Notes under the pieces: generated by a model
Seen by the model: only the letters and a program-made list of their open reading frames with translations
Database searches by the model: none
Told to the model about the DNA's origin: nothing
Shown: one piece after another, positions 7,279 through 62,308 of the stretch
Position numbering within the stretch: position 1 is the first letter of the stretch
Layout of the letters: each line of letters begins with the position of its first letter
Virus record (IMG/VR): IMGVR_UViG_3300045988_108820
Coordinates: 32,001 to 96,000 of that record
From: a virus
Strand: one strand, 5' to 3'
DNA length: 64,000 nucleotides
Made by a program: the position numbers and the translations under genes

Positions 7279-7292
7279 TAATTGTTGAAGAT

Positions 7293-7364: not shown

Positions 7365-7370
7365 CAATAT

Positions 7371-7719: not shown

Positions 7720-7720
7720 T

Positions 7721-7951: not shown

Positions 7952-7954
7952 ACA

Positions 7955-9016: not shown

Positions 9017-9021
9017 TATAT

Positions 9022-9051
9022 AAGCTCATGATTAAATTCATGAGCTTTTTT
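9022..9051 (+). terminator. rho-independent-type terminator
   Basis: AAGCTCATG-ATTAAATT-CATGAGCTT followed by TTTT. Confidence 0.6.
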
Positions 9052-9066
9052 AGTTTTTACTTTGAT

Positions 9067-9240
9067 ATGAAGAAATGCAGTAAATGTAATAGACTTTTAC
9101 CAGAAAGTTCTTTTAAACTTAGGAAAGGTAAACTATATTATATGTGCAGAGAATGCGAAAAAGAGTACATGAGAGATAATCATATGAATATTATAAAATT
9201 AGCTAACTATTTGATAAAGGATGAAACTGTTCAGATATGA
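9067..9240 (+). CDS. small zinc-ribbon protein (57 aa)
   Basis: ORF track 9028..9240. I moved the start to the ATG at 9067 (MKKCSKCNRL...CRECEKEY) because the longer form would begin inside the terminator hairpin. Confidence 0.55.
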   Translation: MKKCSKCNRLLPESSFKLRKGKLYYMCRECEKEYMRDNHMNIIKLANYLIKDETVQI

Positions 9241-22434: not shown

Positions 22435-22611
22435 ATGTTTTTGACACAGCTGAAGTTCATCAATACATTTGAGCATGAAAAGAACCACTTGGAGATGCAC
22501 ATCTGTGAGGCATTAGATATTAATCCTTATTCAGAGGAAGCTGCACACTTGAGTGGTGACTTAGCTCAATTAATTCTTGAAGAAGCCTTATATTCTATTG
22601 TGGAACTTTAG
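22435..22611 (+). CDS. hypothetical acidic 58-aa protein in an insulated mini-unit
   Basis: Hand-found ORF MFLTQLKFINTFEHEKNHLEMHICEALDINPYSEEAAHLSGDLAQLILEEALYSIVEL. It is below the ORF-track length cut-off and is flanked by terminators on both sides. Confidence 0.45.
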   Translation: MFLTQLKFINTFEHEKNHLEMHICEALDINPYSEEAAHLSGDLAQLILEEALYSIVEL

Positions 22612-47200: not shown

Positions 47201-49015
47201 TCCAATGCAAGTTATACAGTGTACTCAATGGATGCTAATGGTAATCCAATTAAGACTAAGCCAATAGAGAATAGAGATCCAAGTACAGAAGCTAATAGTG
47301 ACTTAAACAAAGCTGACTATAAGAAGAAACACTCTGTATATTATAGAGGTTCTCAATATAGAGAGAAGAATGGAAAGTGGTATAATACTAATTGGAAAGA
47401 AGTAACAGATCCTATATTACTTAGTCAAATTAAATGGACTAGCTATATTAGAGTAAATGATTTGACTCCTAATTTAGTTGGTAATGATATGTTTGGTAAT
47501 AAGAATAATGAATATTACATTATTAATTCTAATCCTACAAATGCAAAAGTGATTAAAGTACTTAGTAATGGTATTGTAGCTGAACTTAACATAAATGATT
47601 CTAGAGTAATAATAGAGAAAGTACAAAATAGAGATATTCAAGCAACTAGAGAAAAAGCAGCTAAAGAAGAGAAAGAAAGACTTATGCATATTGAAAACTC
47701 TATGGACTATGATAATGCAGAAGCGGCTGGTGAGGGTGAAGATGTTACTAAGGTTAATGAGATTAGTGGAGCTAATTTAACTGAGGAACAAATTATTGCA
47801 CAAGGTAATGGGGATTTCCAACTTGACTCTAAACCTCAACCAACAGATACTGAGCTTAAGGCACAAGCTATGGTAGATAGAATAACCTCTGATTCTCATG
47901 ACATCATTCTAGATGAAAAGAGAGGTGTATATGTAGATTCCACAGGCAAAGAAAGAGCTAGAGTTACATCAGTAATTCAAGCTACTGAAGGTACTGAGAG
48001 ATTTGACCCAAATAGTCCTTGGATTACTCCTTCTACTAATGTGGGAACAGGAATGGATAACTTTGTAAGAGACTTCTTTGCTAGTAAATTGGGAAGTTTA
48101 GATAGCCTTCAGGAGAGGTATCCTAATGCCACAACTGCTCAACTACAAGCCTTTGAGAAACAGCTCCAAGAGTTCAAGGCTAAGCTTGATAAAGCTGGTT
48201 TAACAGTAGTTCCAAGGGATGTTACTGTCACTGGGGAAGTTGAAGTTACAGATACTAATGGTAAGAAATATAAATTACCTGTAGCAGGAACTCTAGACTT
48301 GCTTGCCTATGACAAAGATGGTAACTTCTATATCTTTGATATGAAGACAAATCATAGTACTCCTAATGCTAAAAAAGCTGCAAAGTGGAACAAACAGTTA
48401 TCTTTATATAAGCAGTTCTTAGAAGAAAAGTATGGTGTTAGTGTAAAAGAGACTTCTATAATTCCAATAGAAGTGAAGTACCCAGCTCCTAAAGGATGGA
48501 GAAATGGAAAAACTGTATATAGAGCAGATGAAAAAACTAATCAACTCTATTATCAGACAGAGGATAATTCTGGAGCATTAACCTCTAGTACTCCATATAG
48601 AGATGCTAAACCAATCTTACACTCTAACATACCAATCTCAACTAGTCCTGTAAAGATAGAGTATAGTTTACTAACTGATTCTGAGAAAGCATTATTATCT
48701 CCTGTGGTAGATGGAACATTTAATTCATCTACAGGTACTACTAACATTGAGAATAAAAATAAGAACAAAGACATTAATAAGACAGGTGACATTTCACTAG
48801 CTGAATTACAAGCTAGTACAAATGCTAAACCTACTAATGTAAGTTCTATGCTTAAAAATAGAAACTATAGTAAAAAGGTAAGAGGAATACTAAAAGAGAA
48901 AGGTTTTAATGGTAAAATGTCTGAGGTAGAAGCTTGGTTAAAAGAGCATAATATGCCTATAAGTAATATAAAAGACATAGATTCTTGGATTGATATGTTA
49001 CAAAACTGTAGATAA
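41297..49015 (+). CDS. giant virion (cargo-type) protein, 2572 aa, with a C-terminal PD-(D/E)xK nuclease domain
   Basis: Uninterrupted ORF. See the domain feature at 47900-48480. Confidence 0.75.
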   Translation: MFTEILRGLKGLKGLRGLEGLSQQERDAWRRVNASKLEGKSAQYEDRLYANQQFVKKFGMDAFNSFNRDQRDYIYKDTIVNELYTDLYSPYTDKVGTDGKYIVDPNKGMGSEAEFKKYYAMDADSKLELIRSGWKPTPQIESELKKERDMKLAAINNSNAWVGAPSYAQGGVTASFIFREPIHEELSRSENNKILEGIYARDLKKREDELQPEIDDYYLNTIGKLSDSEVKSQFMKALTPSDTNIGNSQLLAFFHDGKNVEDEVKNFSIDDMRMYLAKFKVLNDRLGAGAAYTALDNYAKEYISDHQGNLTYAGLLAKDIGISVLSYTADKVNSIRQLFNTGKGKSVVWIDNKGNVVAPDQVKTAKNGDKYYINDDGEVTAIKQTKMSVTDLDYLGKDAEGNTRSDFLNNQFWADAEQYGTLDSDEIKQYKKLGASPYKVVYKPGDDSDLLYETIKMTSFAIADAASMLIPGYGETVGAAMQTTKAASLLSKAISTLGKGIYYTSKLAKAVQPTISATAIGHAYGRGVFGESLAQNMQQLEEYAYTFAQKNFHDNYYSNKQFKDQVDKDVQTEFNKLKNIQKAELNTSEGNKEIANQGLTDEALMEKAKQIVHSTYIDRGVKDIQNSDDYFDMVGKASESASDAAMTAAITDGAKYMLVNNFGYRKFLFNTAADRAASSARRLARNLSEKESRRLLFKSLIDGNKLKTIGKITASQAWGGAWTNFTDEMQSWGGKQINQDRFSSYLSGFYNGQASDDIYGAIDAVTSYFNGAMASLAKGTTWKAGFVGATGSLTSFAPNVASITTTIGTKRGREAWRKASLGERANMIFNNGVLNEYYGKKQGESEIKRYVDVVNKLLDEQDNFSILKSAVALDRASIDVSNQEDKNAITFLKAVNAISLLHQFQSDSGIKDQSSSRIKRWLKNKFGEGENTLGAVASQSTILTKALSEIEDLVNGNLSEESAKSYLSEYYAKNPTVEQSEDNNKRALEEMSQNAKTLQEAENTWQDINSKLDMVEKDRGSKISSNVRSRLLERAALDGFLSERLDALEDKISGNRINTSTESTAETWGTKEAIKEQVLSMERTERDLNKDIIVAKNRLDNATTKLNEYKKTHDIENLDDIATTEYIGLLNNVEAAKLQYEYTTNSMDKLKSRQEKMKAMSKEESSRVLSKNEILALPSEARARMLNDLNRSNYSKEQLEQIDALKNELTLKDPSLLQSIQDQARLLKQKNANASAYEMMLENPEAAYTEFEAQDGVDATISRDLFFRRYSESINNVIRKLSSLSNIKDISQDDIREAIYKNLRVLHPKILDYLDTTLPNEKGLEFIPLYSNEIVKAKEWSNMLTDISKAVDQMNFDDSTKKVFSDNIGNLIDKASTRKQAMDILEQVSNSTDVSNSDQANFRKLLNIINGVEEQRNATTTETKEEKKARQESQETQAKQEEKRVKDAEDKAQEAIEVTEKEASNDKNAQEAYQETEKEKSNEQNAQETYTETKQERRNQEEANKQLNTYEQTDEDIARDKAIEEQRKEGVDFSSGTIDFESPDWEKQVEQAEAEGHKIEEGFVSKDTTDVTDQGNRESMQPSEVLAGNYFHRYDVDALIEDKKEVVSYGRKGDILDRILKWFENAGIKLQEIVDTEVGDIMKTKPEVHLLYVNPKTTATDDACFSDTAMLAVEYTDKISKIHNNDRGGVITANGKQYLIIGTLGFNNREQQSNYVSVHNPAKGSRLKYFTANPNERFYILPTAHTEIAEMTSGRITRQLESDSEVKIRPVTELLSEPNRNPKGLKLQDLKWGIMFEDGLHYANVSPRNTVYPPRDTLSNLGAVFLLIETANGNYIPVAIRSTMLSDLQDGTLKTQLNNLFNELSSTKYSDRLGAINQLVKLLNINEKGDNILIGMDDKATVSTVKNGTVLRTFNLKDANFSRMDLINAIFELNPRVNITLSTLSDPVQLKMYAEAGALNTDIAKLGTSNASYTVYSMDANGNPIKTKPIENRDPSTEANSDLNKADYKKKHSVYYRGSQYREKNGKWYNTNWKEVTDPILLSQIKWTSYIRVNDLTPNLVGNDMFGNKNNEYYIINSNPTNAKVIKVLSNGIVAELNINDSRVIIEKVQNRDIQATREKAAKEEKERLMHIENSMDYDNAEAAGEGEDVTKVNEISGANLTEEQIIAQGNGDFQLDSKPQPTDTELKAQAMVDRITSDSHDIILDEKRGVYVDSTGKERARVTSVIQATEGTERFDPNSPWITPSTNVGTGMDNFVRDFFASKLGSLDSLQERYPNATTAQLQAFEKQLQEFKAKLDKAGLTVVPRDVTVTGEVEVTDTNGKKYKLPVAGTLDLLAYDKDGNFYIFDMKTNHSTPNAKKAAKWNKQLSLYKQFLEEKYGVSVKETSIIPIEVKYPAPKGWRNGKTVYRADEKTNQLYYQTEDNSGALTSSTPYRDAKPILHSNIPISTSPVKIEYSLLTDSEKALLSPVVDGTFNSSTGTTNIENKNKNKDINKTGDISLAELQASTNAKPTNVSSMLKNRNYSKKVRGILKEKGFNGKMSEVEAWLKEHNMPISNIKDIDSWIDMLQNCR
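41318..41362 (+). repeat. five tandem 9-nt repeats (GGTCTTAAA-like) encoding GLK-GLK-GLR-GLE-GLS
   Basis: Read directly: ggtcttaaa ggtcttaaa ggtctcagg ggtcttgaa ggtctttcc, at codons 8-22 of the giant ORF. Confidence 0.8.
45650..45802 (+). repeat. about three tandem 51-nt (17-aa) coding repeats in an E/K/Q-rich linker
   Basis: AQEAIEVTEKEASNDKN / AQEAYQETEKEKSNEQN / AQETYTETKQERRNQEE. Confidence 0.6.
47900..48480 (+). other. PD-(D/E)xK (RecB/Cas4-like) nuclease domain within the 2572-aa protein
   Basis: GTGMDNFVRDFF ... GTLDLLAYD (Asp codon at 48296-48298) ... IFDMKT (D-M-K at 48338-48346) ... QLSLYKQ. This gives the motif order D...(D/E)xK...QxxxY. Confidence 0.6.
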
Positions 49016-49020
49016 AAAAG

Positions 49021-49047
49021 AAAGCCAGTAGGAATTCTACTGGCTTT
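49021..49047. terminator. bidirectional terminator at the convergence point of the two large operons
   Basis: AAAGCCAGTAG-GAATT-CTACTGGCTTT, with A/T tracts on both sides, lying between the stops at 49015 (+) and 49058 (-). Confidence 0.7.
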
Positions 49048-49057
49048 TATTATATTA

Positions 49058-52000
49058 TTACTTTTGTAAATTGTTCTTTTCAAACACTTGGAATACACCA
49101 TTATCAGTATCCATTTCATTAAGTTGTTCAATTTGTCCGTAAAATGGAATTAAATACTTTTGAATGTTTCTAAAGTATTTATTTTCCCCCTTATGCTTAC
49201 CAGACTTAATTGTGTCATTAATATCTCCAATACCAGCAAATGGGTATAAAAAGGAATTAACTACATTAGATGCAGCTATAGGACTGTTTATTAGAGTATT
49301 CATTTCCATAGGAATACCCCATGGAGTTGAACCATTTATATCTGTAATAGCTCTCTTTGTTTGATATATCCACATCCTTGTCCAAAATTCTTTCTTATGG
49401 TCATCAGGTTCACCGAGAGCAAATGATAATGTAAGAAGACTAGATAATACAAGTATTTCAGATAGTGCTCTTCTACAATTAGCTTTTTGCATAGGATTCA
49501 TCTCATTCCAATGCAACATTGATTCTCTTTGAAACCTAAATATATCCCCAGCCATAGCATAAGCAAACTTAGAAGCTGTGTTATAATATCCCTCTCTATT
49601 TTCTCCAAGAGTAGCATCATAATGAGAACTCCTAAATCTTCTAGAGTAGTGTTCAACCATCCATTGCCTTAAATTCATTATAAATCTACCAGCCATGTGT
49701 TGATGAATTAAACCTTTGTCTTCTTCATTCATAGCACCATGGGTAGTTTGATTTACATATCTAATTCTTTTTCTAATCTTCTCTAAAAAGGCATCATCAA
49801 TAGGAACTTCTTGACCATTATCATCAGTATATGTAGCATTTTTATCAATTATTAGTTCAGAATTACCATCTACCTTATTACCTACAGAGAATACATCATA
49901 AAGGGATTTAGTTTTTCCATTTATTTTAATCTTAGTATTATGTAATACAGCATACATATTTACAAAGTGAATTAAGTGTTCACCTGCCCCATAACCTATG
50001 AATGAGAAGTTCTTTCCCAAAAGATGTCTTAGTGGTCCTCTGTAATATCTTTGATGCTGTAATTCTCCAAAATTTTCATTTAATGGATCAAATATTTGTG
50101 CTAACAATACTGATTTACTATTAGTATTATTAGTCATAAAGTCCATTATTCTTCCTACAGAGCCTTTAATATTATCACCAAAAACTTTCTTATGTGCCCA
50201 TGCATAATCAATAGGATTATAAAACTCCATAGCCCCAGACTCTACTAACATTTGAAGTTCACCTACTAGGTAGTTAGATATAGCTCCTTTAACATTAACA
50301 GCCAAACTCTTTAAAGAAGTATATGCAAGTAGATTCTTCAGTAACATGTGATATTTTCCAGGGTTTTTAATATTAACACCATATATAAATTTATCAACAA
50401 ATCCATCAACAATACCAATAGTATTAGAATTACTTGCAAAAGCTCTTAATTGTTTATAAACCCTAATACCTGTATCTTCTACCATATCTAGACTTTTATA
50501 GTTCCTTCCAGCAGCTACTTCTTGGTCTTTAATAAAATCAGCCATAAATTCAACAGTGTCTTTAATATTATTCATAGCCTCATAGTTTATTGCAGTTCCT
50601 GCTAAGTGTTGTATAGCACTAGAGAAATCTTTCAGTAGTTCTCCTTTATCTTTAATCTTATTGATATAGAATATAGGTATTTGTCTAAATGGAGTATTAT
50701 CTAATGCTCCACTAACTATGTTATATTCTTCTCCATTTACTATACCATTATTTGCATATCTATCATCATCTTCTCTTATAGTAGTAAAGTCTTTAAGTTT
50801 TGTTCTAATAGCTTTTATTAAATCTCTAAGACTTCCCTTCTTAACAGCAGCTTTCATAGCATCCACAAAGGATCTCCTAATTTGAGGAGGTACAAATTGT
50901 CTTTGAGCATAATTAGGTAATAAGGTTCCTAATTCTCCTTTTATTTGCATCATTGTTTCATAATACTCCTGTTGCTCACTAGTTAATTTAGGAAATGCTT
51001 TTCTATATGTGGAATTAGGAACTCTCTCAGTTCTGCCACTTACTAAATCTACAACTCTATCCTCTGTATTAGCTTCTTCCCAATTTTTTATAGCTTCATC
51101 TACAGATAGACCTCTAGTTCCTTGCCCTATTAATCCTTTTCTAAAATTAGCTCTAGCTTTATAATAAGCAGTCCAATCAATATCACTTATGATATAACCA
51201 TTAGGCTCATACATAAAGTCACTCTTAAAACCTGCTTTTCTGAGTTTATGTTCTGCTCTTCTTATTCTAAGAGATATAGCATTCATCTTAGCATCCCTAG
51301 AAGATTGAGCATCTCTTATAATGTTACCCATAGTAGCAATTAATGGGTTAGAAACTCTTCCAATACTATATAAATAGTCATAGATAGTAGAGTCTTTTTC
51401 AGCCATTTCAACTATATTAACTACAGACATGCCATTAGAAAGTTTATCTCCTAAATATTCAGTAGCTATAGTAGTCATAGTATTTAGTCTTAACTCCCTT
51501 AGAGTTTTATCATGTTTATCAAAGAATTCTACTAGTTTAGTAGCTTGATCTTTTATAATTTGTTTATCAGTATCACTAAGTCTTTCATCTGAGATAATAC
51601 TATCAATATTAGACAATGATGTAAGAATGCTTTTATAACCATCAGTAATAGATTTAACCTGCATTAGTGACTTAGCTATAGCAGAAGCTCTCTCTAGATT
51701 ACTTCCAGATTGTGGAGTATTCTGGAGGATTTTTTCCACTTCTTGTATTTGTGTAGATGCTTCACTAAGAAATCCTAGAATACCAACATAGTATCTATTA
51801 CTATTAATTTCCTTCATAAGTGTATGCAAAGACTGTTCCAATCTAGTAGTTTCAGGGGTTATTCCCTGCTCTGCTTTCATCTTTTTGAGCTGTCTTTGTA
51901 ATGTTATAGCAGCTTCTGATGCTGCTTGAGATAAACTCCTTATATTATTTCCAACTAGTACTACTTCATTAAAGTCTAGATTATATTTCTTATTTAGTGC

Positions 52001-52903
52001 TTTTATTGTATCTTCTATCTTACCTTCTTCTGAATTTCCAATTGCCTGTTCTACACTCTCTATTTGTTGTGAAACTGCATTAATATCAAGTCCATTATAC
52101 TTTTTACAATTATTTAATGTAGCATCTATTAAGGCTTTTTGAGAAGCTGTTACTCCACCAACTCTATAAGAGTCATATATTTTTTGAGCAACTTCTTCCA
52201 ATGTGCCAAACATTTGCTTAAGTCTTTGTACTTGACTACTTGATTCATTAAATACTAGAAGGTCTTTAATCTCTTTTCTGTCAAGAAACTTATTATCAGT
52301 AAATTGTACATTATGCATTTGAAGTATAGCATTTCTAGCATTAGCTGCATTATATACTGATTTATTAACATCAGCAGATTCAATGTCTATACCAACATTA
52401 TTTAAAGATTGTTTTAATATATCCCATTGTTGTAGTTGCTTTTCAACTTGAGCACTTCTTAATTGTGTTCTTGAGTTTCTCACATCTACTACAATATTAA
52501 ATTTATCTCCTCCAGAATAGACAGCAGCTACAGTACCTTTACTAGAATTATTATGACGCTGTGCTATATCAAGGGCATCTTTAGCATTAGTATAATCAAT
52601 AGGATTTCCTGAGAAATCAGTAGCTCCTATTGTTCTTGATACTTCACTTACCTTTCCTTCTGTAGATTCCCTAATAAATGACATTACATCTAGGTACTTT
52701 TCTACATCTGCAATCTTATGTTCACCTTGGTCATTTCTAGAATAACCTAGGCTATCCATCTGTGCAGCTACCCCCGATTGGAGGTAGACTGCATAGATGT
52801 AATTAGCCTTTGGTCTATTCCCTGTGACTTTAAGTAACTCCTTATAGAGTTTACTAGGTTTACCCTGTATTGTAGGGTATAATTCACATGAATTTTTAGC
52901 CAT
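49058..52903 (-). CDS. large virion/cargo-type protein (1281 aa), co-transcribed with the RNAP polyprotein
   Basis: Uninterrupted ORF. Its ATG directly abuts the stop of the upstream 3115-aa ORF. Confidence 0.7.
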   Translation of the reverse strand: MAKNSCELYPTIQGKPSKLYKELLKVTGNRPKANYIYAVYLQSGVAAQMDSLGYSRNDQGEHKIADVEKYLDVMSFIRESTEGKVSEVSRTIGATDFSGNPIDYTNAKDALDIAQRHNNSSKGTVAAVYSGGDKFNIVVDVRNSRTQLRSAQVEKQLQQWDILKQSLNNVGIDIESADVNKSVYNAANARNAILQMHNVQFTDNKFLDRKEIKDLLVFNESSSQVQRLKQMFGTLEEVAQKIYDSYRVGGVTASQKALIDATLNNCKKYNGLDINAVSQQIESVEQAIGNSEEGKIEDTIKALNKKYNLDFNEVVLVGNNIRSLSQAASEAAITLQRQLKKMKAEQGITPETTRLEQSLHTLMKEINSNRYYVGILGFLSEASTQIQEVEKILQNTPQSGSNLERASAIAKSLMQVKSITDGYKSILTSLSNIDSIISDERLSDTDKQIIKDQATKLVEFFDKHDKTLRELRLNTMTTIATEYLGDKLSNGMSVVNIVEMAEKDSTIYDYLYSIGRVSNPLIATMGNIIRDAQSSRDAKMNAISLRIRRAEHKLRKAGFKSDFMYEPNGYIISDIDWTAYYKARANFRKGLIGQGTRGLSVDEAIKNWEEANTEDRVVDLVSGRTERVPNSTYRKAFPKLTSEQQEYYETMMQIKGELGTLLPNYAQRQFVPPQIRRSFVDAMKAAVKKGSLRDLIKAIRTKLKDFTTIREDDDRYANNGIVNGEEYNIVSGALDNTPFRQIPIFYINKIKDKGELLKDFSSAIQHLAGTAINYEAMNNIKDTVEFMADFIKDQEVAAGRNYKSLDMVEDTGIRVYKQLRAFASNSNTIGIVDGFVDKFIYGVNIKNPGKYHMLLKNLLAYTSLKSLAVNVKGAISNYLVGELQMLVESGAMEFYNPIDYAWAHKKVFGDNIKGSVGRIMDFMTNNTNSKSVLLAQIFDPLNENFGELQHQRYYRGPLRHLLGKNFSFIGYGAGEHLIHFVNMYAVLHNTKIKINGKTKSLYDVFSVGNKVDGNSELIIDKNATYTDDNGQEVPIDDAFLEKIRKRIRYVNQTTHGAMNEEDKGLIHQHMAGRFIMNLRQWMVEHYSRRFRSSHYDATLGENREGYYNTASKFAYAMAGDIFRFQRESMLHWNEMNPMQKANCRRALSEILVLSSLLTLSFALGEPDDHKKEFWTRMWIYQTKRAITDINGSTPWGIPMEMNTLINSPIAASNVVNSFLYPFAGIGDINDTIKSGKHKGENKYFRNIQKYLIPFYGQIEQLNEMDTDNGVFQVFEKNNLQK

Positions 52904-55900
52904 TTAGCAAAGTTTTTTATATTCTTCTTCTATAGTTTTTTCATCAAATTTAATTCCAAGAACTTCAAGTCTAGATTTCATGAACTTCTTAACTTGTGAT
53001 TCAATAGCCTTCTTAAACTCATTGTCCATATTTTTATAATTTTGGATAGTACTTTCTGCATCTGCAAGTGTTTTACCCTTCGTCATATATATTTGGTGTA
53101 ATAAGTCTATTTGCTCTTGTTCACTATTAGTAGATTCATCTAACTTAGTTTCTCTATCCACATCTGGATTATTAATCTCTGATTTTGTATTATCTTCCAA
53201 GGATACTGAAGGAATCTCAAGAGGTTTCTCAATTCCATCAATGCTAATCTCTAGATAGTCTTTGTTACTTCCAAGAGGATTAATTTCTTTGTACTCAATA
53301 GATTCATCTTTTGATAGAACTTGCTGATATAATTTATCAACATTATCTACTCTCATTTTAAAATATTGAGTTTTCTGAAGATCTTTAACATCACTCTCTT
53401 TATATACTTCAAAGTTACCATTCTCAAGCTTTCTCATAACAAGATTTTTCTTTCTAGGAACAAGCTTGTTATTGTCCCAGTTATTTCTAATAAACTGGTC
53501 AAGGACTATCTCAGGTGTGCTACTTGGGAGTACTCTAAATGTATCAACATAACTACTAAGTCTCTCTTTCACATATACAGGAACTAAACTCATAAAGGTT
53601 TTAGGAGAAAATCCTATTCCAGCTCTAAAGAAACAGTACTTAAAGAGTTTTTCAGATAATTCTGGATTCACTCTATGAAGGTCAATCCAAGCACTACTTA
53701 GTCTTTCTTTTTGTAGAATATCAAGACCAGTAATATCAACCTGAAGAGTGGCTCTACCTCCTTTATCAGTTCCATATTTTATAGACTGAATGAGAAGATT
53801 ATTTTTATACTGTTCTTTGTAGTTTTTCTCCATAAACTCCTTAGGGAACTCTGATATAGTTTTACCTAAATCATTTGATTTTACTACATTACCTGCTACA
53901 ACAAGATAGGACTGATAGAAGTCACTTAAACTACTAAGAATTTTTCTATCACCGAGAATAACATCACCTATTGGATTTTCACTAGCATAAGTGAGGATAT
54001 TTCTAAATCCTGTACTATTAGCTGGCATACTACTAAATAAGCCTTGTGCTATTCCTAATGTTTTTCTAAATTGATTTAGAATAGGATGTGCAAGGAAGAT
54101 ATCATTAATACTAATTTCCTCTCCATCTGAGCCAAGAATATTACTCTCAGAAGAAAGCTTTTCCATTTTATGCTCGGTGATTAAATTATCAATAATCAAT
54201 GGACCCACTGCACTACTTATTGAGTTAAATCTAGTAGCAAATGTAGGCATCCTCATAGCGTCAGCAAGTCTTTGAAAGTTTCTAAATGACTTAAGAACTT
54301 TGTATTCAATTCTTGAATCCCTTGATTTTACACCTTTAATTAATTGCTCTCTAGTAAGTTCTTCTTCATTAAGTAAACTATTCTCATCAATATTTAGATC
54401 TTTCTCTATTTTCTTTATCCTATTTTCAACTACTTTACTTAAAGAAGTAAATCCTGTGATATTTTCACTACTAAATTGATTAAGAACATCTGATATAACT
54501 CTTTGAGATAAGAAGAGAGCAGCATCATCAAAAGGCATTCCAAGTCTTACAAGAGTATTAAGAATATTAGCTGTATTACTATTAATATTCATCAAGTTAA
54601 GTACAGGATCTTTAACAGCATCAGCTGCACTAGCAACTAAACTACCAAGTACTTTACCAACTGATTGTCCACTATTATCAAGTCTAACATCAATAGGCAT
54701 ATTACCTCCAAAAGTCATATCTGCTACAGTAAATGGTCTAGTAAGGTTACATGCATTATCTACATTCATCATATATCCTTCATTCTCTATTACTGCATGA
54801 GCAGTTCTATTAACTGCAAAGATACCAATAAGAGAACCAGCAGCACTATTTTGTTTGTAGAATTGTATATGAGTATCAATAAACATAAGATTCTTATCTT
54901 TACTACTTAAATCCTTGAGTTCATCAATAGACATCTTACTTAATTCATCATAGCTTTTGTCAGTAGTTCTAAGAGCAGTTACAAGATAACCCATTCTCTT
55001 TTGTGGGTCAAAGCCACCTGGATTTAGCATTTCTGCACAACTAGTTTCATGTGTTAATACCTCATAAGTCATATCAACAATCTTATTATTTCTATAAGTT
55101 CTTCCTTCTGTAGGTTTATTAACAGTAAAAGCATTTTGTAAATATAACTTAAGTAACTTACTATAAGAATTACTAGGAATTGACATGAATCCTTCAGCTG
55201 TCTTTTGATTAACTAGAGAGGCTCTATCAAATGGGTCTTCAAGAAATTGTCTAACCAAATCATTAAGTTTGCTTTTAACATTATAACTTAGTTTCCCTTT
55301 TTGAGACTCAACTAGAGAATCATATAATATTTTATGAAGAGCAGATTTAGTAATTTTATTTTTAGAAATACTGTAATCTTTTCTCATAAGATACTCCTTA
55401 TCAACATCAAAGTCTGAACCTGTGAGTAGTGTAATATCACTAGGTAACATAATACCATCACCAGCTTCTCTAGGTAAGAAACCCACAATCTTCAAAGGAG
55501 CCATACTATATTTAGCTTCAGTAGGAATTCTATAGCCAATCATCTTTAATAAATCAGGGTCAAGAGCTTCCAATGCTTCTATGCTAATGTTACCATTCTT
55601 ATCAGCGAATTGACTGAATAGATTGTTAGCATATATAGGAGCAAATACCTCAAAGTAAGCAATACCTCCTTGATTTTCTTTTATATAATCTTTATAGGAC
55701 ATTGTACCTTCAGAAACCTTTAATCCTTTGTATTTAGCATTAAATTTATCAGTTTGAGAAAGTTCTTTCTTTATAGGATTTTTTTCATATTCTGCTCTTG
55801 TTTTTAATAAACCTCCATTCTTGTCTTTAAATCTAATATTAAGTTCTCTAGAAGTACCAAAGTTAGTAACCTGTACAACAGGACCACCAGCTATTTCTTG

Positions 55901-58900
55901 TTTATTAACTCTATTCTTTATAACAGAGTTGACTAATTGTTCAACTCTTTTACTCTGAATAGGATCTCCAAGAGGTATTCTAAATCTACCATTTTCATCA
56001 ACCGAACAAGCTTGTAAGAGATCTATACCATATCTAGGACTGGATAATATTTCTCTTTGTAATATCTTACTAAGAGCTATATTTCTATCTTTTGTATTAG
56101 TACTTTGAAGACCTAGAGCACTCTCTAAACCACTTATACTATCTTCAATATTATCTGCAATAGTTTGTTCATACTCAGACTTAAATTCATCAGCAGATAT
56201 TTTTTTACCTTCAACTTCATAGGTTGCATCATTTCCAAAGCTATCTTTTGTAGCAAGTTCTGATACTACAATATATCTCAATTGGGAGCCATGAACTTGC
56301 TCATGATTCTTAAAGTGCTCAGGCACTTCTTGTTGTAAACAATAGTCTTCAAAAGGTAGCTCTTGAACATAAGTTTGATTATATTTACCTGTTTTGGTAT
56401 CTATAGTCACATCCTCAAGTTTTCCAGTCTCTTGGTTAGTTCTTTGGATTGTTTTAGGAGCTGTCTCATATATACAAGCCTCCATAACAGCTTTGGCTTT
56501 AGCTTCTCCATTGACATCATTAATATATTTATTAAGATTAATTCTGCCCATTAAGCCAGACTTTACAGTTGACTCAAACTGAACAGTATCAATACCATCT
56601 GTCTTATAGTTACCATCTTCATCATAGTGACTTTCTTCCATTACTTCATAGATTGCTCTAAGTAGGTTTGGTCTACCAGTGTTCTCATTTTGAAGAATAG
56701 CATCAGCCATTATAAGAAGATATTCAGAGTTTTTATTCTGTACAGGTATTTTAAGCTTATCAAGGGGAGCATTAGGTACACCAGAAGACTTTTCTATTTG
56801 ACTATAAACAAAGGGCTTTAGTGGTTGAAACGCTACACTTAGATCACTATAATTGTAATCTCCCTTTCTAAGTTTTTGATATATTTCTTCTGCCTTTTTA
56901 CTCCATTTACCAAAAATAAATGCTTTCTTTCTATATGATGTTGGAGAAGAATATCCTTGAGCATCTGCTACATTTATTTTTCTAAATGCACCATCTTTAC
57001 CTACAAGAGAGTCTTTTAATACTCTATAACCATCTTTTTCAGCTTCTGGAGCTTCAGCTATCTTTCTATCAAAAACAATTGATACATTGTCAATGATATT
57101 AGATACAAAGTCATCCCAGTCTTTAAGATAGAAGGTTCTTTCCTTTCCATCAGAGACTTTACTACCTTCATAGTCTGTAGCATCTACATTACCTCTTATA
57201 CCTGGAGCATGGATTTGTGCTAATCTCTTTTGTAAATCTTCTGCATCCTTATAATAGGCAATATCAGTTACAGTTAATTCCATTATGTTCATAGCTGCAA
57301 AAGTATCATTCCAAACAAAGTTTTCAAGATTAGATTTAATCTCTTCCTCTGTAGTACCAATACCTGAGATTTTCTTAGCTCCTTCCATAAGACCAGAGTT
57401 AATCCAATTCTCTACAATGGATTTAGCTCTAGTGTCTAAAGTATCAAAGATAGCTTTATTAGCAAGTTCATATAACTTAGCTTCATCTACTTCTTTACCA
57501 TTGATTTTATTGTTTATAAGTTTACCTAATTCACTATTCTTTTTATCTCCAGTAAGATAATCATTCATAAAGTCAAGGAAGCAGAACTTTTTACCATTTT
57601 TATCAAAATTCTTTATGAATCTTGGACCTTTACTATCGAGGTTTCTCATCAGTACGGTTTGGATTCTACTTAACTCTTGATTAAATATGTCCATCATACC
57701 ATCTGTAATAGTTTCTCTATAGTTAATACCTCTTTCACTATAAAACCTTATGAATTCAGAAGATGGCTTATTAGATAACATAGGCACCCTAAACCAAGCA
57801 GGTACTCTTGATTGTTTATCATTTGCACCTTCTGAAAAATACTCTGTAAGTAATGAGAGTGCATACTCCATATCACTCATATTCTTCATATAATTGTGCT
57901 TATTGAAACTGAGTTGTACTTTATGTTTAAAAACACTTCTAGCTTTACTATCAGTAGCTAAAGTTCTAAGCCAACTGTTTCTCCAACCTCTTTCAATATC
58001 TGTGCCTTCATGAAACCATGGTTGGTTTGCATACTCCTCGGTCAGAAAGTCATCAAAAGCCTGTCCCTCTTGACTAAATTTTTGCATTAACTTAGACATA
58101 TAAGAAGGAGTTACATAACTTTGATACATTTTACCATTATCATAAAAGGCAGAAATTGCAATATCTTCTAAGTGTTCTGTGATAGGCTTTAAGAACTCTC
58201 TCATATTACCATTGATACTATCTTTAGCCTTAAACTTGAAAGGTTCATAAGAAGCATTATCAAGATTATTTTCAAAAGATCTTATCATGTATCCTAAAGC
58301 ACTATACATCTTTTTAAAAGTTTCACTCGTAAGATTACTCTTTACCATATCAGGAGTTACATAATAACCAAATAAGCTTGAAATATAATCTAAAGTATTA
58401 GCAACTTCATCTTTATCAACTTCTTTAGATAAATCATATCCTGTATGCCTAAACTTTTCAAGACTGTCATAAGCAGATTTAAGTTCTCCAAATGATTTTT
58501 TATTTATACCCTCAGTAGTAAATAATGGATGTTCTCCTATTTTATACTGAGTTGTGACTTGCGTCATGGCTTCACTAAGAGCAGGATTTTCATTTACTGA
58601 AATACTTTTATATTTTCCATCTTCTTCAATTACTGTTGAATATGATTGAAATGGCTTAAAGAATGTTCCGTAGAATTGACTCTGAAAATCAGTCTCTTTA
58701 CCAGAAGTATCAGATAATCTATCAATAAGTTGTTTAACCCAAGGATTATCTTTCTGCTTTCCTTGTAATTTAGTTATTGCACTAGCCAAACTTAATGAGC
58801 CTTGTGTCCATCTAAGTATAGAATTAGTTGCTTCTCTTACATTTATTCTTTCATTGATACCAAACTCTGATTGTACATTGTTCCCATCTTTATCAAGAAT

Positions 58901-61900
58901 ATAACATTTAAGTAAGGCTTTCCTAACCAATTGAGACATAGTTTCAAGTATATCTTGACATCTAGATTCTAATTGCCAATGCTCTTGAAGATTACCTTCA
59001 ATTTCTTCCACACTTGCCTGGTCATTAGATTCATTAAAGTTATCTGCATCACCCACAAGATCTTCATTGACTTCATTAACTTTCCCATCAGGTGTGGATA
59101 CTATACTAAAATCTTCAAAGTTTAAGAATGAACTTTGTGCAAGTAACATTACAGCTTGCCAATTATCAGTAATAGCAGTAGCTTTATCTATTGTATCAAA
59201 GTTGTCAAAGTCATTATGTTCAGGAGAAAACTTCTGTCTGCACATTTCAATTATATTGTCAACTCCAATAGTTCTAACTACATCTGCTCTAGTCATAGAG
59301 GCAAAATCTTTGTCAGTACCATCCTTATTTTTAAACCTATCACCATAGATAGTTTTAGCTGCCTCTGGATTTTCTTGCAATTCAGTAATATGGTCTGAAA
59401 TCCAATATACAGCTTGTTCAGCTATATGTCTTACTTCTGTTGCAGAAAGGAGACTATCTCCTAAAAGGTTGTCTATTTGTTGCATCTTATCTTGTTGTTT
59501 TAATGTATATAAATCTTGTTCTTTTTCTTTTCTATCTATCTGTGAAGTTTCTTCTTGAGTACCATCTTCAGTATTAGCTACTTGAACATTAGTAGTAGTT
59601 TGTAGATTATTATCCTGAGACTCTTGCTTATTTAATCTAATACCTTTCTCTAGTTCTATTCTATGAATAGCATCTAAAGTAGCTCTCTTCTCTACTTCTA
59701 TTTTGTTAGGTGAAAGCCAATCTATTGCATAAGGAACTAAACTACCATAAGTATCTCTTATATCTCCTTCATAATAGTCTTTACCACTATCCTCCCAATA
59801 CTTATGACTTAATTCATGATATGTTACTAAATTTTTAGCATCTTCATCAGTTTGAATTATTTCTCTTAGTCTTTCTTCTGTATATCCTTCCTTTGCTAAT
59901 TCTTTAAAGACTACCCTTTTTTGTTCTGATGTGCTACTAGGGACTTCACCTTTAATATATTTAAAAACATCTTCTTTACTAAGATTCCTAGCAACTACTA
60001 TATTACCACTCCTAGTAAATCCAAGTTTTCCATTTAATATTTTCTCATCAGTAGTTTCATTTATAGGAGCTTGAAATTTAGAGTACTCTTCAAAAGTTCC
60101 ATCACTCTTAAGATAATCACTACTACCTTTGGAGTAATCATAAATACCCCCTCTTAAGTTTTTATTAGCAGAATTAAAATACTCTTGTGAAATAGAAATA
60201 ATTTCCTCTAAAGCTGAATCTTTTATATCTATTCCTTGAGATTTAAACATTTTATTAAATAAATTAGTAAGATAATTTATAAATCTCTTAAAAGCATTTT
60301 CTTTCTTACCTAACTTTATTTTACTTAATTCTACTTGAAAGGCTCTATCTGTTAAAGCTACAGCTACAAATTCTTTAGCATTAGTTAATCCATACCACTC
60401 AGTTCCCTTTAATTGTTCTTCACATTGTAGATATAGATTCCATACATTATTAGAAAATTCTGTTTGTACTTTATTAAAGTTCTTTATTTTAGACCAAGAA
60501 GGGTGATAATTTAAAATCTCAGCAGTAACAGCATGAATTAATTCGTGAGTTAATACCTTCATAATACCTCCCTTTACATTAGCTTTATCATCTGTCATTA
60601 GATAATCTAATAATAAAGCAGGATTAATTCTTATTGTAGCTGTTCTAAAATTATCTTGTTTTCTACTAGCTATACCATCTAAATTAGAGTCTATAAGTAT
60701 ATTTATAGGAATATTATTATTTCTTAATATCTCAACTACTTGTTTAAATAATTGGTGATATGGATTAGTAGGTTTTACTTTACTTAAAAACTCATCAATT
60801 AAAGAGTTATTTAGAGTAATACCTTCCTGCTTTAATATAGCTATAGCTCTCTCTCCCTCTATAGCATTCTCAATAGAGTCCCCTGATATATAGTCTTCCC
60901 TATTAAGCAATTCTAACTCCTTATTAATTTCTTCTTGTCTTGAGAAAGCTTGCTTTTTATGCCATTTATCTATTAAATTATCAGCTAACTTAGGGTTTTT
61001 TAATTCTGATAAAACATTATCTAGTTCTTTTAAATTGTGAATTATATTACCCTTATCATCAACTTTTATTCTAGTATTATAGCTTTTATTAAATCCAGCT
61101 GCCTTTCTTCTTAATGCTCCTACTTTTCTTTCTAATGGAAGATTTTTAAAGTCTTCTTTAGCTATATCCATTAGACTTAGAACATTACTAAGATTTTCTC
61201 TCTCTTTCTCTATAGACTTTATTCTATCATCTATTTTACTCTGTAATTGTGTCTTAGATTCTCCCTTATAAGAAATTCCAAGAGCTGATTTTTCTTCATT
61301 ATAATAATCTATTCTATCATCAGTTCTGGAGAAGGTTCCTATATTACTCTCAGCTGATTTAATTTGATTTGGGGTTGGAACAACTATTTCTTCATATCTC
61401 CCCTCAGCACCTGAATATAACACACCATCATATTCTTCCGTATTACCTATTCCCCTATTAAAGTTTTCAGCTAATTCCACATTTTTAATAGCTTCTTTCA
61501 TACTTATATTAGGATCTGTCCCTGCTCTTAATGGTTTTTTTATATTTACAAATAATTTCATTATATTACCATATTGAGCAGCTTTATTCTCTACGGAAGA
61601 TAAATATAATCCTTTACCATAGTATCCATCATCTGTGTTTTTACCAAACATTTTAGTATCTAGTATATTCCACTTACTATTGGTACCATGATAAACAACT
61701 AAAGGTTCACCATTTTCATCTACTACTTTAGAAGCATTCTCTGGGTCATTTTCCCAATCACCAAACCAACCTTTAAATTCTTTAGTTCTAACCTGAGCAT
61801 ATTGTCTTTCATCAAGATTAGACTTTTTACCGTTAGGAGCTAATAAATTACCTTCTGAGTCTCTTTTAGCATTAGATAAAATATACTTATATTCTGACTC

Positions 61901-62251
61901 AAATGTGGGATTTCCTATCATTAAATCATAAGTTCCATTTTTTCTCTCTACAATAGAAATACTATCCTTTCCAAATATTTTAACTGCATTGTTATACTCC
62001 TCATTAGCTAAGATTAGTGTGGGAAAGTTAATAGGAGATGAGTATTGCTTCTCCCATACTTCAATCATATTATGGTCTCCAGTAAAAGACTTTGGCTTGA
62101 GTAAATTATTTACTTCTTCTGCACTTGGAAATCTATCACTATTCTCAGAATTTTGTATCTTATGAATAATTAGTTCTAGAGCAGATGAGGATATATCTAC
62201 CTCATCAAGTAAAGTTTTAAACTCTCTTGAATTAATATTAACACAACTCAT
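52904..62251 (-). CDS. giant polyvalent protein containing the virion RNA polymerase (3115 aa)
   Basis: GYRIPTEAKYSMAPLKIVGFLPREAGDGIMLPSDITLLTGSDFDVDKEYLM aligns by eye with the catalytic double-psi beta-barrel of multisubunit RNAP beta-prime ([46 protein letters not shown]). The size and the N-terminal accessory domains fit crAss-like virion RNAPs. Confidence 0.85.
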   Translation of the reverse strand: MSCVNINSREFKTLLDEVDISSSALELIIHKIQNSENSDRFPSAEEVNNLLKPKSFTGDHNMIEVWEKQYSSPINFPTLILANEEYNNAVKIFGKDSISIVERKNGTYDLMIGNPTFESEYKYILSNAKRDSEGNLLAPNGKKSNLDERQYAQVRTKEFKGWFGDWENDPENASKVVDENGEPLVVYHGTNSKWNILDTKMFGKNTDDGYYGKGLYLSSVENKAAQYGNIMKLFVNIKKPLRAGTDPNISMKEAIKNVELAENFNRGIGNTEEYDGVLYSGAEGRYEEIVVPTPNQIKSAESNIGTFSRTDDRIDYYNEEKSALGISYKGESKTQLQSKIDDRIKSIEKERENLSNVLSLMDIAKEDFKNLPLERKVGALRRKAAGFNKSYNTRIKVDDKGNIIHNLKELDNVLSELKNPKLADNLIDKWHKKQAFSRQEEINKELELLNREDYISGDSIENAIEGERAIAILKQEGITLNNSLIDEFLSKVKPTNPYHQLFKQVVEILRNNNIPINILIDSNLDGIASRKQDNFRTATIRINPALLLDYLMTDDKANVKGGIMKVLTHELIHAVTAEILNYHPSWSKIKNFNKVQTEFSNNVWNLYLQCEEQLKGTEWYGLTNAKEFVAVALTDRAFQVELSKIKLGKKENAFKRFINYLTNLFNKMFKSQGIDIKDSALEEIISISQEYFNSANKNLRGGIYDYSKGSSDYLKSDGTFEEYSKFQAPINETTDEKILNGKLGFTRSGNIVVARNLSKEDVFKYIKGEVPSSTSEQKRVVFKELAKEGYTEERLREIIQTDEDAKNLVTYHELSHKYWEDSGKDYYEGDIRDTYGSLVPYAIDWLSPNKIEVEKRATLDAIHRIELEKGIRLNKQESQDNNLQTTTNVQVANTEDGTQEETSQIDRKEKEQDLYTLKQQDKMQQIDNLLGDSLLSATEVRHIAEQAVYWISDHITELQENPEAAKTIYGDRFKNKDGTDKDFASMTRADVVRTIGVDNIIEMCRQKFSPEHNDFDNFDTIDKATAITDNWQAVMLLAQSSFLNFEDFSIVSTPDGKVNEVNEDLVGDADNFNESNDQASVEEIEGNLQEHWQLESRCQDILETMSQLVRKALLKCYILDKDGNNVQSEFGINERINVREATNSILRWTQGSLSLASAITKLQGKQKDNPWVKQLIDRLSDTSGKETDFQSQFYGTFFKPFQSYSTVIEEDGKYKSISVNENPALSEAMTQVTTQYKIGEHPLFTTEGINKKSFGELKSAYDSLEKFRHTGYDLSKEVDKDEVANTLDYISSLFGYYVTPDMVKSNLTSETFKKMYSALGYMIRSFENNLDNASYEPFKFKAKDSINGNMREFLKPITEHLEDIAISAFYDNGKMYQSYVTPSYMSKLMQKFSQEGQAFDDFLTEEYANQPWFHEGTDIERGWRNSWLRTLATDSKARSVFKHKVQLSFNKHNYMKNMSDMEYALSLLTEYFSEGANDKQSRVPAWFRVPMLSNKPSSEFIRFYSERGINYRETITDGMMDIFNQELSRIQTVLMRNLDSKGPRFIKNFDKNGKKFCFLDFMNDYLTGDKKNSELGKLINNKINGKEVDEAKLYELANKAIFDTLDTRAKSIVENWINSGLMEGAKKISGIGTTEEEIKSNLENFVWNDTFAAMNIMELTVTDIAYYKDAEDLQKRLAQIHAPGIRGNVDATDYEGSKVSDGKERTFYLKDWDDFVSNIIDNVSIVFDRKIAEAPEAEKDGYRVLKDSLVGKDGAFRKINVADAQGYSSPTSYRKKAFIFGKWSKKAEEIYQKLRKGDYNYSDLSVAFQPLKPFVYSQIEKSSGVPNAPLDKLKIPVQNKNSEYLLIMADAILQNENTGRPNLLRAIYEVMEESHYDEDGNYKTDGIDTVQFESTVKSGLMGRINLNKYINDVNGEAKAKAVMEACIYETAPKTIQRTNQETGKLEDVTIDTKTGKYNQTYVQELPFEDYCLQQEVPEHFKNHEQVHGSQLRYIVVSELATKDSFGNDATYEVEGKKISADEFKSEYEQTIADNIEDSISGLESALGLQSTNTKDRNIALSKILQREILSSPRYGIDLLQACSVDENGRFRIPLGDPIQSKRVEQLVNSVIKNRVNKQEIAGGPVVQVTNFGTSRELNIRFKDKNGGLLKTRAEYEKNPIKKELSQTDKFNAKYKGLKVSEGTMSYKDYIKENQGGIAYFEVFAPIYANNLFSQFADKNGNISIEALEALDPDLLKMIGYRIPTEAKYSMAPLKIVGFLPREAGDGIMLPSDITLLTGSDFDVDKEYLMRKDYSISKNKITKSALHKILYDSLVESQKGKLSYNVKSKLNDLVRQFLEDPFDRASLVNQKTAEGFMSIPSNSYSKLLKLYLQNAFTVNKPTEGRTYRNNKIVDMTYEVLTHETSCAEMLNPGGFDPQKRMGYLVTALRTTDKSYDELSKMSIDELKDLSSKDKNLMFIDTHIQFYKQNSAAGSLIGIFAVNRTAHAVIENEGYMMNVDNACNLTRPFTVADMTFGGNMPIDVRLDNSGQSVGKVLGSLVASAADAVKDPVLNLMNINSNTANILNTLVRLGMPFDDAALFLSQRVISDVLNQFSSENITGFTSLSKVVENRIKKIEKDLNIDENSLLNEEELTREQLIKGVKSRDSRIEYKVLKSFRNFQRLADAMRMPTFATRFNSISSAVGPLIIDNLITEHKMEKLSSESNILGSDGEEISINDIFLAHPILNQFRKTLGIAQGLFSSMPANSTGFRNILTYASENPIGDVILGDRKILSSLSDFYQSYLVVAGNVVKSNDLGKTISEFPKEFMEKNYKEQYKNNLLIQSIKYGTDKGGRATLQVDITGLDILQKERLSSAWIDLHRVNPELSEKLFKYCFFRAGIGFSPKTFMSLVPVYVKERLSSYVDTFRVLPSSTPEIVLDQFIRNNWDNNKLVPRKKNLVMRKLENGNFEVYKESDVKDLQKTQYFKMRVDNVDKLYQQVLSKDESIEYKEINPLGSNKDYLEISIDGIEKPLEIPSVSLEDNTKSEINNPDVDRETKLDESTNSEQEQIDLLHQIYMTKGKTLADAESTIQNYKNMDNEFKKAIESQVKKFMKSRLEVLGIKFDEKTIEEEYKKLC
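55400..55414 (-). other. DxDxD metal-binding motif (DFDVD, aa 2280-2284) of the RNAP catalytic barrel
   Basis: Reverse-strand codons GAC TTT GAT GTT GAT. Confidence 0.8.
59804..59818 (-). other. second HExxH motif (HELSH, aa 812-816)
   Basis: Sequence context LVTYHELSHKYWEDSG. Confidence 0.45.
60533..60547 (-). other. HExxH zincin motif (HELIH, aa 569-573), MPTase-PolyVal-like
   Basis: KVLTHELIHAVTAEIL, with a downstream NAKEFVAVALTD (candidate third ligand Glu). Confidence 0.6.
61367..61789 (-). other. ADP-ribosyltransferase domain (ART-PolyVal-like, aa ~155-295)
   Basis: TKEFKGWFGDWEN...SKVVDENGEPLVVYHGT...GKGLYLSS...RYEEIVVPTPNQIKSAESNIGTF is the H-Y-E type pattern typical of ART domains in phage polyvalent proteins. 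Confidence 0.65.
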
Positions 62252-62276: not shown

Positions 62277-62308
62277 CAAAGTTAATTAAATTTTGCTTAG
62301 TTATCAAA
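62277..62308 (-). promoter_or_regulatory. Bacteroidota-type promoter for the RNAP operon
   Basis: The reverse strand reads TTTG-N20-TAACTTTG. The -7 box ends 26 nt upstream of the ATG at 62251. Confidence 0.6.

Follow-up and report, generated by a model that had tools for sequence, protein, structure and literature searches.

We analyzed a 64,000-nucleotide stretch of viral DNA (IMG/VR record IMGVR_UViG_3300045988_108820, positions 32,001 to 96,000; hereafter the window), in which one minus-strand gene, 52904-62251, encodes a 3115-residue polypeptide that joins an ADP-ribosyltransferase (ART) domain and two HExxH modules, A and B, to an RNA polymerase (RNAP) of the crAss type. An effector cassette of approximately 900 residues lies between an N-terminal leader (residues 1-135) and the RNAP body (residues 902-3115). 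The gene probably specifies a virion-packaged, two-barrel (crAss/QDE-1-type) RNAP made as a single polyvalent cargo protein. Polyvalent proteins carry at least two biochemically unrelated effector domains per polypeptide and are encoded with phage virion or late genes (PMC5512222). In the present case, an ART, a predicted gluzincin, a conserved HExSH domain, and an RNAP occur in one open reading frame (ORF), which is placed in a block of cargo and transcription genes behind a host-type promoter. We report the identities and conserved catalytic residues of these domains, the promoter motif, the recurrence of the architecture, and the movement of its modules among related proteins.

The ORF begins with ATG and comprises 3115 codons plus a stop, the length given in a first-pass annotation made from the sequence alone; all of the motifs quoted in that annotation were located at the residues it gave. 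The closest record to the gene was that of the uncultured phage cr116_1 (NC_055882, Pamirivirus faecium), with 86.8% nucleotide identity across gene nucleotides 883-9348. This phage is classified in the Steigviridae, Asinivirinae, Pamirivirus, and the phage of the window is a Pamirivirus-like, crAss-like gut phage of the Steigviridae. Comparisons also included the sister genome L008 (IMG/VR contig IMGVR_UViG_3300045988_037647) and representative homologous proteins from a HMMER search, designated by P numbers (such as P0019). That search, performed with residues 320-899 against 1.84 billion representatives, returned 86 relatives falling into two separate modules. A word-indexed homolog search of the same residues gave just 7 close matches.

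RNA polymerase body

The RNAP body (approximately residues 902-3115; 52907-59548, minus strand) has approximately 2200 residues, about the size of gp66, the RNAP of Cellulophaga phage phi14:2 (2180 residues). Using phmmer against the Protein Data Bank (PDB), the gp66 structure, 6VR4, was the sole match to the protein (E = 3.1e-22), with five aligned segments covering gp66 residues 860-2042 (860-1033, 1109-1263, and 1323-2042). The homology to gp66 extends over the barrels and the connector. In this alignment, GSDFDVDKEY of the window protein corresponds to GSDFDIDKMY of gp66. Specifically, DFDVD at residues 2280-2284 (55400-55414, minus strand), the sole DxDxD in the protein, aligns with DFDID 1361-1365, the catalytic motif of gp66 (bioRxiv 10.1101/2020.03.07.982082). 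The assignment in the first-pass annotation of a crAss-type, two-barrel RNAP with a catalytic DFDVD was thus confirmed. The body is 90% identical to cr116_1 gp051+gp049 and to the L008 protein, and 25-34% identical to cr85_1 gp053, annotated as 'putative RNA polymerase [phiCrAss001]'.

HExxH occurs three times in the ORF, as compared to 0.03 expected by composition. The third occurrence, HEQVH at 1983 (residue 1979-1983 region; 56303-56317), lies inside the RNAP body and is retained in the close relatives P0024, P0023, P0019, P0028, and L008. It was rejected as a zincin based on its location in the RNAP body and its absence from the aligned gp66 segment, and is probably not a zincin-type metal site.

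In cr116_1, approximately 840 inserted nucleotides (NC_055882, 12436-13275) split the RNAP gene exactly within its catalytic motif (DFD|VD). The insertion point corresponds to 55406/55407 of the window, between codons 2282 and 2283. The insert encodes a 215-residue LAGLIDADG-type ORF (LLIGLLIGDG) that is flanked by two group I intron halves according to Rfam (34.7 and 32.3 bits; E = 7e-7 and 3.5e-6). Neither the window nor L008 has the intron.

ADP-ribosyltransferase domain

Residues 178-307 (61331-61720, minus strand) matched the ART-PolyVal family, PF18760, over model positions 1-140 of 140 (E = 9.5e-20 to 1.2e-21). The score was 72.2 bits for the whole protein and 78.3 bits for an N-terminal fragment, with a cut-off of 31.2, and two families of giant phage proteins, PHROG 30335 and 21376, matched the same stretch. 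The first-pass annotation had identified the domain correctly but had set its boundaries at approximately residues 155-295. The motifs on which it drew are FKGWFGDWEN (159-168), VVYHGT (185-190), GKGLYLSS (212-219), and EEIVVPTPNQIKSA (287-300).

The active site of the ART-PolyVal/Tox-ART-HYD2 enzymes consists of a His in strand 1, a Tyr in strand 2, and an Asp in strand 5 (Iyer et al., PMC5512222). Alignment with eight other crass ARTs revealed an intact triad in the window protein: H188 (VVYHGT), Y216 (GLYLSS), and E288 (YEEIVVP). The third, acidic position is Glu in this protein and D or E among its relatives. Substitutions at the other two positions were found in some relatives: F or W for the Tyr in cr116_1, ctcc615, and P0019, and R for the His in P0003. 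By analogy, the domain would ADP-ribosylate a host target using NAD+; no characterized ART-PolyVal member or substrate was found in the literature searched.

The ART core is the most divergent part of the protein in the comparison with cr116_1. Identities between the two phages were 65% for the leader, 71% for the pre-ART linker, 32% for the ART core, 63% for the spacer that follows it, 77% for module A, 78% for module B, and 90% for the RNAP. Similarly, L008 contains an uninterrupted ORF of 3110 residues with an RNAP 90% identical to that of the window and an ART core only 36% identical. The pre-ART linker is 71-83% identical in relatives whose ART cores are only 32-36% identical. By comparison, the ART core of the window is 63% identical to the C-terminal ART of cr85_1 gp056, a different carrier protein in a phage of another genus. 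The flanks of the domain stay conserved, with FKxWFGDWE...VVDENGEPL upstream and NQIKSA..GTFSRTxDRIDY downstream. Together, these sequence comparisons suggest that the ART core is a cassette exchangeable between conserved flanks, as in polymorphic effector systems. Such exchange would in turn suggest an arms race over the ART target.

In phi14:2 gp66, residues 48-85 retain an FGDW...NEDGEPL motif corresponding to window residues 148-187, and Pfam detected no ART there. This motif may have been left behind when a cassette was lost, or it may be a conserved element of the junction.

Module A, the first HExxH module

Module A spans residues 469-732 (60056-60847, minus strand) and carries HELIH at 569-573 and a candidate third ligand, E627, in YGLTNAKEFVAVAL. 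In an alignment of 23 sequences, the majority of which share 22-42% identity with the copy in the window, H569, E570, H573, Y620, G621, F628, F638, and Q639 were invariant and E627 was at least 90% conserved, the motif around the third ligand being YGLxNxxEFxAEALTNxxFQ. The family profile matched residues 194-351 of phi14:2 gp65, around HEIMH (2e-28). This RNAP-associated protein has a published 'zincin-like' domain, so module A corresponds to a known domain, here fused to the RNAP. Against the PDB, the same profile matched the tetrameric ejection protein gp48 of PhiM1 (8vb2_A, 6e-10) and an 'Internal virion protein' (9sfn_G, 1.5e-9), neither of which carries a peptidase annotation, followed by anthrax lethal factor (LF; 2l0r, 0.021), projannalysin (0.068), and Spartan (1.2). 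The helix containing E627 aligns with the LF helix YGRTNEAEFFAEAF. Judged from these profile matches, module A is an LF-like gluzincin of the gp65 and ejection-protein type. The zincin that the first-pass annotation placed at HELIH was therefore supported by the gluzincin pattern and the gp65 match, and its identification as Pfam MPTase-PolyVal was not.

Single-sequence approaches were less sensitive: phmmer with residues 440-900 found no match among PDB sequences, and only the family profile gave matches. Pfam searches of the window module yielded zincin matches below threshold alone (SprT-like, DUF3810, and M90); among the 23 members, 10 had sub-threshold SprT-like matches and others matched M90, M91, or ATLF. 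A low-confidence AlphaFold2 (AF2) model of residues 440-900, built from an 8-sequence alignment, has strands at model residues 77-81 and 99-103, the HExxH helix at 120-141, and a later helix at 186-195 that contains E627. A transitive link through a DarB-like protein of Serratia phage Parlo (tblastn, residues 569-693) was rejected, the matched region of that protein having no Pfam domain.

Module B, the second HExxH module

Module B comprises residues 733-869 (59645-60055, minus strand), with TSxQK at 774-778, HELSH at 812-816, and E854. It is a domain of approximately 125 residues that we found in 36 diverse sequences, whose identity to the window copy ranges from 28 to 72% (mostly 30-46%). 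S775, Q777, V781, H812, E813, H816, and E854 were invariant in all 36, and D821, Y826, and R856-A857-T858 were at least 90% conserved. A complete stand-alone gene of 146 residues was also found. The AF2 model, with a predicted local distance difference test (pLDDT) score of 94.3, is composed of a β-hairpin and three helices, followed by the HExxH helix, a loop, and the helix containing E854.

No Pfam family matched module B at its cut-off, with weak matches to M91, YgjP, and M78 in 2-4 of the 36 members, and the best match of the module B profile among PDB sequences was to unrelated proteins (E = 0.17). The matches in BFVD were limited to two phage proteins, that of cr116_1 and another named 'RNA polymerase', and a single-sequence search for related loci gave one close relative. 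The second HExxH module proposed by the first-pass annotation is thus a genuine conserved domain; since it matches neither a Pfam zincin family nor a solved fold, the peptidase label given to it is putative. From its conserved residues, our best guess is that module B would be a metal-dependent hydrolase.

Kinship between the two modules was considered and rejected. In hhalign, only the HExxH helix aligned, with 3.6% probability, and modules A and B are therefore treated as unrelated or undetectably related.

Recurrence of the fusion

In many of the representatives bearing module A or B, the modules lie at the N-terminus of a crAss-type RNAP polypeptide, and at least four other crAss-type RNAP polypeptides contain an ART, as assigned by Pfam. 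The module layout of the cr116_1 and L008 proteins is that of the window. In the arrangements below, Nterm denotes the leader. P0019 (3236 residues) is arranged as Nterm-ART-modB-RNAP and P0016 (3659 residues), whose ART match comes in two pieces, as ART-modA-RNAP. The layout is Nterm-modA-RNAP in P0024, P0023, and P0028 (3063-3847 residues), modB-RNAP in P0037, P0021, P0025, P0029, and P0041 (2690-2973 residues), and Nterm...modA-modB-RNAP in P0008 (2729 residues).

The modules also occur on other carriers. In cr85_1 and ctcc615, an HExxH and an ART lie at the C-terminus of a cargo protein of approximately 2500 residues, and in phi14:2 the module A zincin is on gp65. As the modules sit on differing cargo proteins across crassviruses, the three co-packaged proteins appear to share a pool of accessory modules. 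The first-pass annotation had singled out the covalent linkage of ART, peptidases, and RNAP as notable. The fusion is real, but it recurs in crAss-type RNAPs and has analogs in the virion RNAPs (vRNAPs) of N4-like phages (PMC5512222). Moreover, zincin-RNAP fusions in crAss-like phages and the idea of self-cleavage have been published (bioRxiv 10.1101/2020.03.07.982082, citing Yutin 2018).

Leader, linkers, and spacer

The leader (residues 1-135; 61847-62251, minus strand) corresponds to the start, from residue 1, of related RNAP polypeptides. Matches to residues 1 to approximately 120 were found in P0024, P0023, P0019, P0028, P0008, P0022, P0020, and P0039. A leader of approximately 120 residues, which received no family assignment, heads many RNAP polypeptides of otherwise different composition, and may be a packaging or ejection signal.

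The pre-ART linker (residues 136-177; 61721-61846, minus strand), with the pattern SNLxERQYAQVRTKxFKxWFGDWE...ASKVV, forms the upstream flank of the ART cassette. Downstream of the ART, a helical spacer (residues 321-468; 60848-61291, minus strand) is conserved in cr116_1, L008, P0008, and P0009; no family was matched in a Pfam search of fragments. Finally, a disordered, low-complexity linker (residues 870-901; 59549-59644, minus strand; AF2 pLDDT below 50) divides the effector cassette from the RNAP body. The content of this slot varies among relatives, and cr116_1 has approximately 165 extra residues in it. In the metagenomic relatives P0003-P0005, a cpYpsA/SLOG-like domain (PF12694, GGQTGVD) follows module A and replaces module B.

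Promoter and neighboring genes

A promoter-like site, TTTG-N20-TAACTTTG, is located at 62277-62308 on the minus strand, 25 nucleotides upstream of the ATG. It corresponds to the -33/-7 pattern of Bacteroidota promoters. The host-type promoter reported in the first-pass annotation was found at exactly this position, and its motif is kept at the same position upstream of the orthologs in cr116_1 and L008. The window contains six sites with the promoter pattern, as compared to 1.34 expected. A host-type promoter fits what has been described for crAss-like phages, in which gp66 transcribes the early genes and the host RNAP transcribes the middle and late genes (bioRxiv 10.1101/2020.03.07.982082). 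The other matches, to TTTG-N19-21-TAnnTTTG, are at 1376-1406 (minus strand) and at 5779-5810, 7248-7278, 22440-22471, and 49132-49162 (plus strand). The first four fall outside the listed ORFs of at least 80 residues and are candidate host-RNAP promoters; the match at 49132-49162 lies within the 1281-residue ORF described below, on the opposite strand.

The stop codon of the RNAP ORF directly adjoins the start of a 1281-residue ORF (49058-52903, minus strand) in a TAA ATG junction, the gapless continuation that had been noted previously. This ORF encodes a cargo protein of the gp65-like, RNAP-associated kind: it is homologous to cr85_1 gp054, which is itself homologous to phi14:2 gp65. It has no HExxH, and no match was found in Pfam or the PDB.

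A convergent ORF of 2572 residues (41297-49015, plus strand) encodes a gp47/gp67-like cargo protein that ends in a PD-(D/E)XK nuclease (residues 2284-2395; 23.8 bits in Pfam, with a cut-off of 22). The HExxH+ART tail of its counterparts in cr85_1 and ctcc615 is absent from it according to Pfam and an HExxH scan. GC skew and AT skew both flip sign at approximately 48000-50000, where the plus-strand structural and cargo genes meet the minus-strand RNAP operon. The flip is expected, as gene orientation switches there and transcription is convergent.

Proposed function and alternatives

In the course of infection that we propose, the gene would be transcribed late by the host RNAP from the Bacteroidota-type promoter, and the protein would be packed in the capsid as cargo and ejected with the DNA. 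The ejected RNAP would refold and transcribe the early genes, the ART would modify a host target with NAD+, like T4 Alt, and the zincin or zincins may cut the polyprotein or activate the RNAP; alternatively, their substrates may be proteins of the envelope or the host. Orthologs of gp66, gp65, and gp67 are present in virions, and cleavage of the polyprotein by the zincin has been proposed; the structure of gp66 is self-inhibited, and whether it is activated by proteolysis has been asked (bioRxiv 10.1101/2020.03.07.982082). Mass spectrometry has identified RNAP-associated proteins in the virions of PhiCrAss001 (PMC10172136).

Several points weigh against this proposal. The packaging, cleavage, and enzymatic activity that it ascribes to the window protein are drawn from homologs and the literature. 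The vRNAP of N4, its HExxH domain included, is reported to be packaged unprocessed (PMC5512222), so self-cleavage is not a safe default. Pfam MPTase-PolyVal (PF18818) matched neither the protein, nor fragments of 333-416 residues, nor the members of either module, in searches at the most permissive E-value limits, at which HMMER filters still drop most matches above E of approximately 0.1. The AF2 model of residues 440-900 was poor (pLDDT 62), and its best Foldseek match in the PDB, LF 6zxj_I, was non-significant (E = 0.53). For module B, Foldseek with the pLDDT-94 model gave no fold match in the PDB (best E = 1.1). In the ART, the third residue is Glu rather than the canonical Asp (PMC5512222). 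Finally, crAss-like phages need the host RNAP for their middle and late genes, which constrains models in which the ART shuts down that enzyme.

A broader reading, which we advance only tentatively, takes the N-terminus of crAss vRNAPs as a polymorphic effector slot, the linkers as recombination junctions, and module B as an undescribed metalloenzyme fold. As part of it, ART cassettes would swap between phages and co-packaged cargo proteins in the style of polymorphic toxins, and module B would occur mainly at vRNAP N-termini, for example as a protease by which the self-inhibited polymerase is released or activated once ejected.

A serious rival to polyprotein cutting, although we consider it the less probable, is that the zincin modules, especially A, serve ejection or envelope penetration as part of the ejectosome, where they would cleave peptidoglycan peptides or envelope proteins or have a structural role. 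The best solved relatives of module A, 8vb2_A and 9sfn_G, are ejection and internal virion proteins of unrelated podoviruses, and it is this kinship that gives an envelope or ejectosome role its weight. The gp66 study names peptidoglycan digestion as an alternative role of the gp65 zincin (bioRxiv 10.1101/2020.03.07.982082), and the unprocessed packaging of the N4 vRNAP also favors a role in ejection. Nevertheless, Pfam searches detected no peptidoglycan-binding or lytic domain in the protein, which must moreover reach the cytoplasm for its RNAP to function. The strictly conserved catalytic Glu favors catalysis and is silent on the substrate.

It is unlikely that the ART acts on something other than a host protein, that is, that it modifies nucleic acid, modifies the RNAP or cargo of the phage itself, or is an NADase directed against NAD+-dependent defense. 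Members of the ART superfamily do modify DNA, RNA, and small molecules (PMC5512222; PMC9503650), the fusion puts the ART beside a DNA- and RNA-handling enzyme, and the literature searched contains no characterized ART-PolyVal substrate. Yet the Tox-ART-HYD2 clade has been placed beside protein-modifying ARTs (Iyer et al., PMC5512222), and the occurrence of the same ART on a cargo protein that is not an RNAP indicates that physical coupling to the polymerase is not required.

There is little to recommend the view that the N-terminal modules are catalytically dead relics, kept as a scaffold for packaging or ejection or as a spacer for the RNAP. The substituted ART positions of some relatives and the vestigial FGDW...EDGEPL of phi14:2 gp66, which stands alone without an ART, would fit it. 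In the window protein, however, the H-Y-E triad is intact, and the HExxH and downstream Glu are invariant or nearly so in both modules across 23-36 sequences, the bulk of which share 22-46% identity with the window copy; such conservation would be unexpected for relics.

That the giant ORF is an assembly or annotation artifact, or a set of normally separate proteins, is very improbable and largely refuted: the cr116_1 gene is annotated as two coding sequences, but that split is due to the group I intron with its LAGLIDADG ORF at DFD|VD, the window and the independent L008 have uninterrupted ORFs of the same layout, and several further representatives have 3000-3800 residues.

Significance

The architecture is real, recurrent in these phages, and largely anticipated. 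crAss-like phages are the most abundant human gut viruses, and in the first minutes of infection they rely on proteins that they inject along with their DNA. The present protein indicates that an injected RNAP can form a single polypeptide with a putative host-modifying ART and two metal-site domains, that the same modules migrate among three co-packaged cargo proteins in different crassviruses, and that even phages with 90% identical polymerases appear to have replaced the ART core. It thereby provides concrete candidates for the takeover of Bacteroidota cells by crassviruses, for studies of ART-PolyVal targets, and for the activation of the self-inhibited virion RNAP, a question left by the gp66 structure paper. 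It also defines a conserved HExSH...E domain outside any family or fold assignment.

crAss vRNAPs, their zincin partner, and polyprotein fusions are already published, as is the ART+MPTase+vRNAP fusion in N4-like phages, which has an unrelated polymerase (PMC5512222). As both polyvalent virion proteins and crAss zincin-RNAP fusions had been published, the gain is incremental rather than conceptual. An ART on a crAss RNAP is not described in the literature searched, which did not cover the domain figures of Yutin et al. 2018 and Drobysheva et al. 2021 (Nature); the same literature contains no description of module B as a family, of module shuffling, or of ART cassette exchange.

Comparison with known systems

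The proteins most similar to that of the window are cr116_1 gp051+gp049 and the L008 protein, which have the same module order and promoter motif, with 90% identity in the RNAP, 67-77% in module A, and 77-78% in module B. They differ in their ART cores (32-36% identical), and cr116_1 has two added inserts and the group I intron. The UniProt name of the cr116_1 protein is 'ART-PolyVal-like domain-containing protein'.

The gp66 and gp65 proteins of phi14:2, a phage of the same family, Steigviridae, are encoded in the same gene block and are annotated from virion tandem mass spectrometry. The RNAP body is homologous to gp66 (E = 3e-22) and module A to gp65 residues 194-351. In phi14:2, however, the zincin belongs to a protein of its own, downstream of the RNAP; in the window it is fused to the RNAP N-terminus. 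In addition, gp66 lacks both the ART and module B, having just the vestigial motif.

cr85_1 gp056 and ctcc615 AXF52200, the latter annotated as 'putative RNAP associated protein fused to zincin protease', similarly contain an ART-PolyVal domain (79 and 57 bits, respectively) preceded by an HExxH. In these phages, the HExxH precedes the ART at the C-terminus of another cargo protein, and the RNAP of cr85_1, gp053 (2401 residues), is bare. Their HExxH region was undetected by the profiles of modules A and B.

Beyond the crassviruses, the HExxH helix and the YG(L/R)TNxxEFxAEA Glu-helix of PhiM1 gp48 (8VB2) and LF align with module A. The carriers are different, the similarity extends over approximately 130 residues, and that to LF is weak. 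T4 Alt is a functional analog known from the literature, a head-packed ART that is injected with the DNA and modifies host proteins (PMC5512222). It belongs to another ART clade (R-S-E as compared to H-Y-D/E) and has no polymerase fused to it.

A parallel in overall design is provided by the vRNAPs of N4-like phages (Schitoviridae), in which an injected RNAP is fused to an ART-PolyVal-type ART and one or more HExxH zincins, as in Roseovarius Plymouth podovirus 1 (PMC5512222). These proteins are likewise encoded with virion genes, and the logic proposed for them is to deliver several early-acting activities together (PMC5512222). Their polymerase is T7-like and single-subunit, whereas that of the window has two double-psi β-barrels. 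In N4 itself, the HExxH domain is C-terminal to the RNAP and its match to module A is just E of approximately 2. The combination of ART, HExxH, and vRNAP in N4-like and crAss-like phages thus looks like a convergent architecture.

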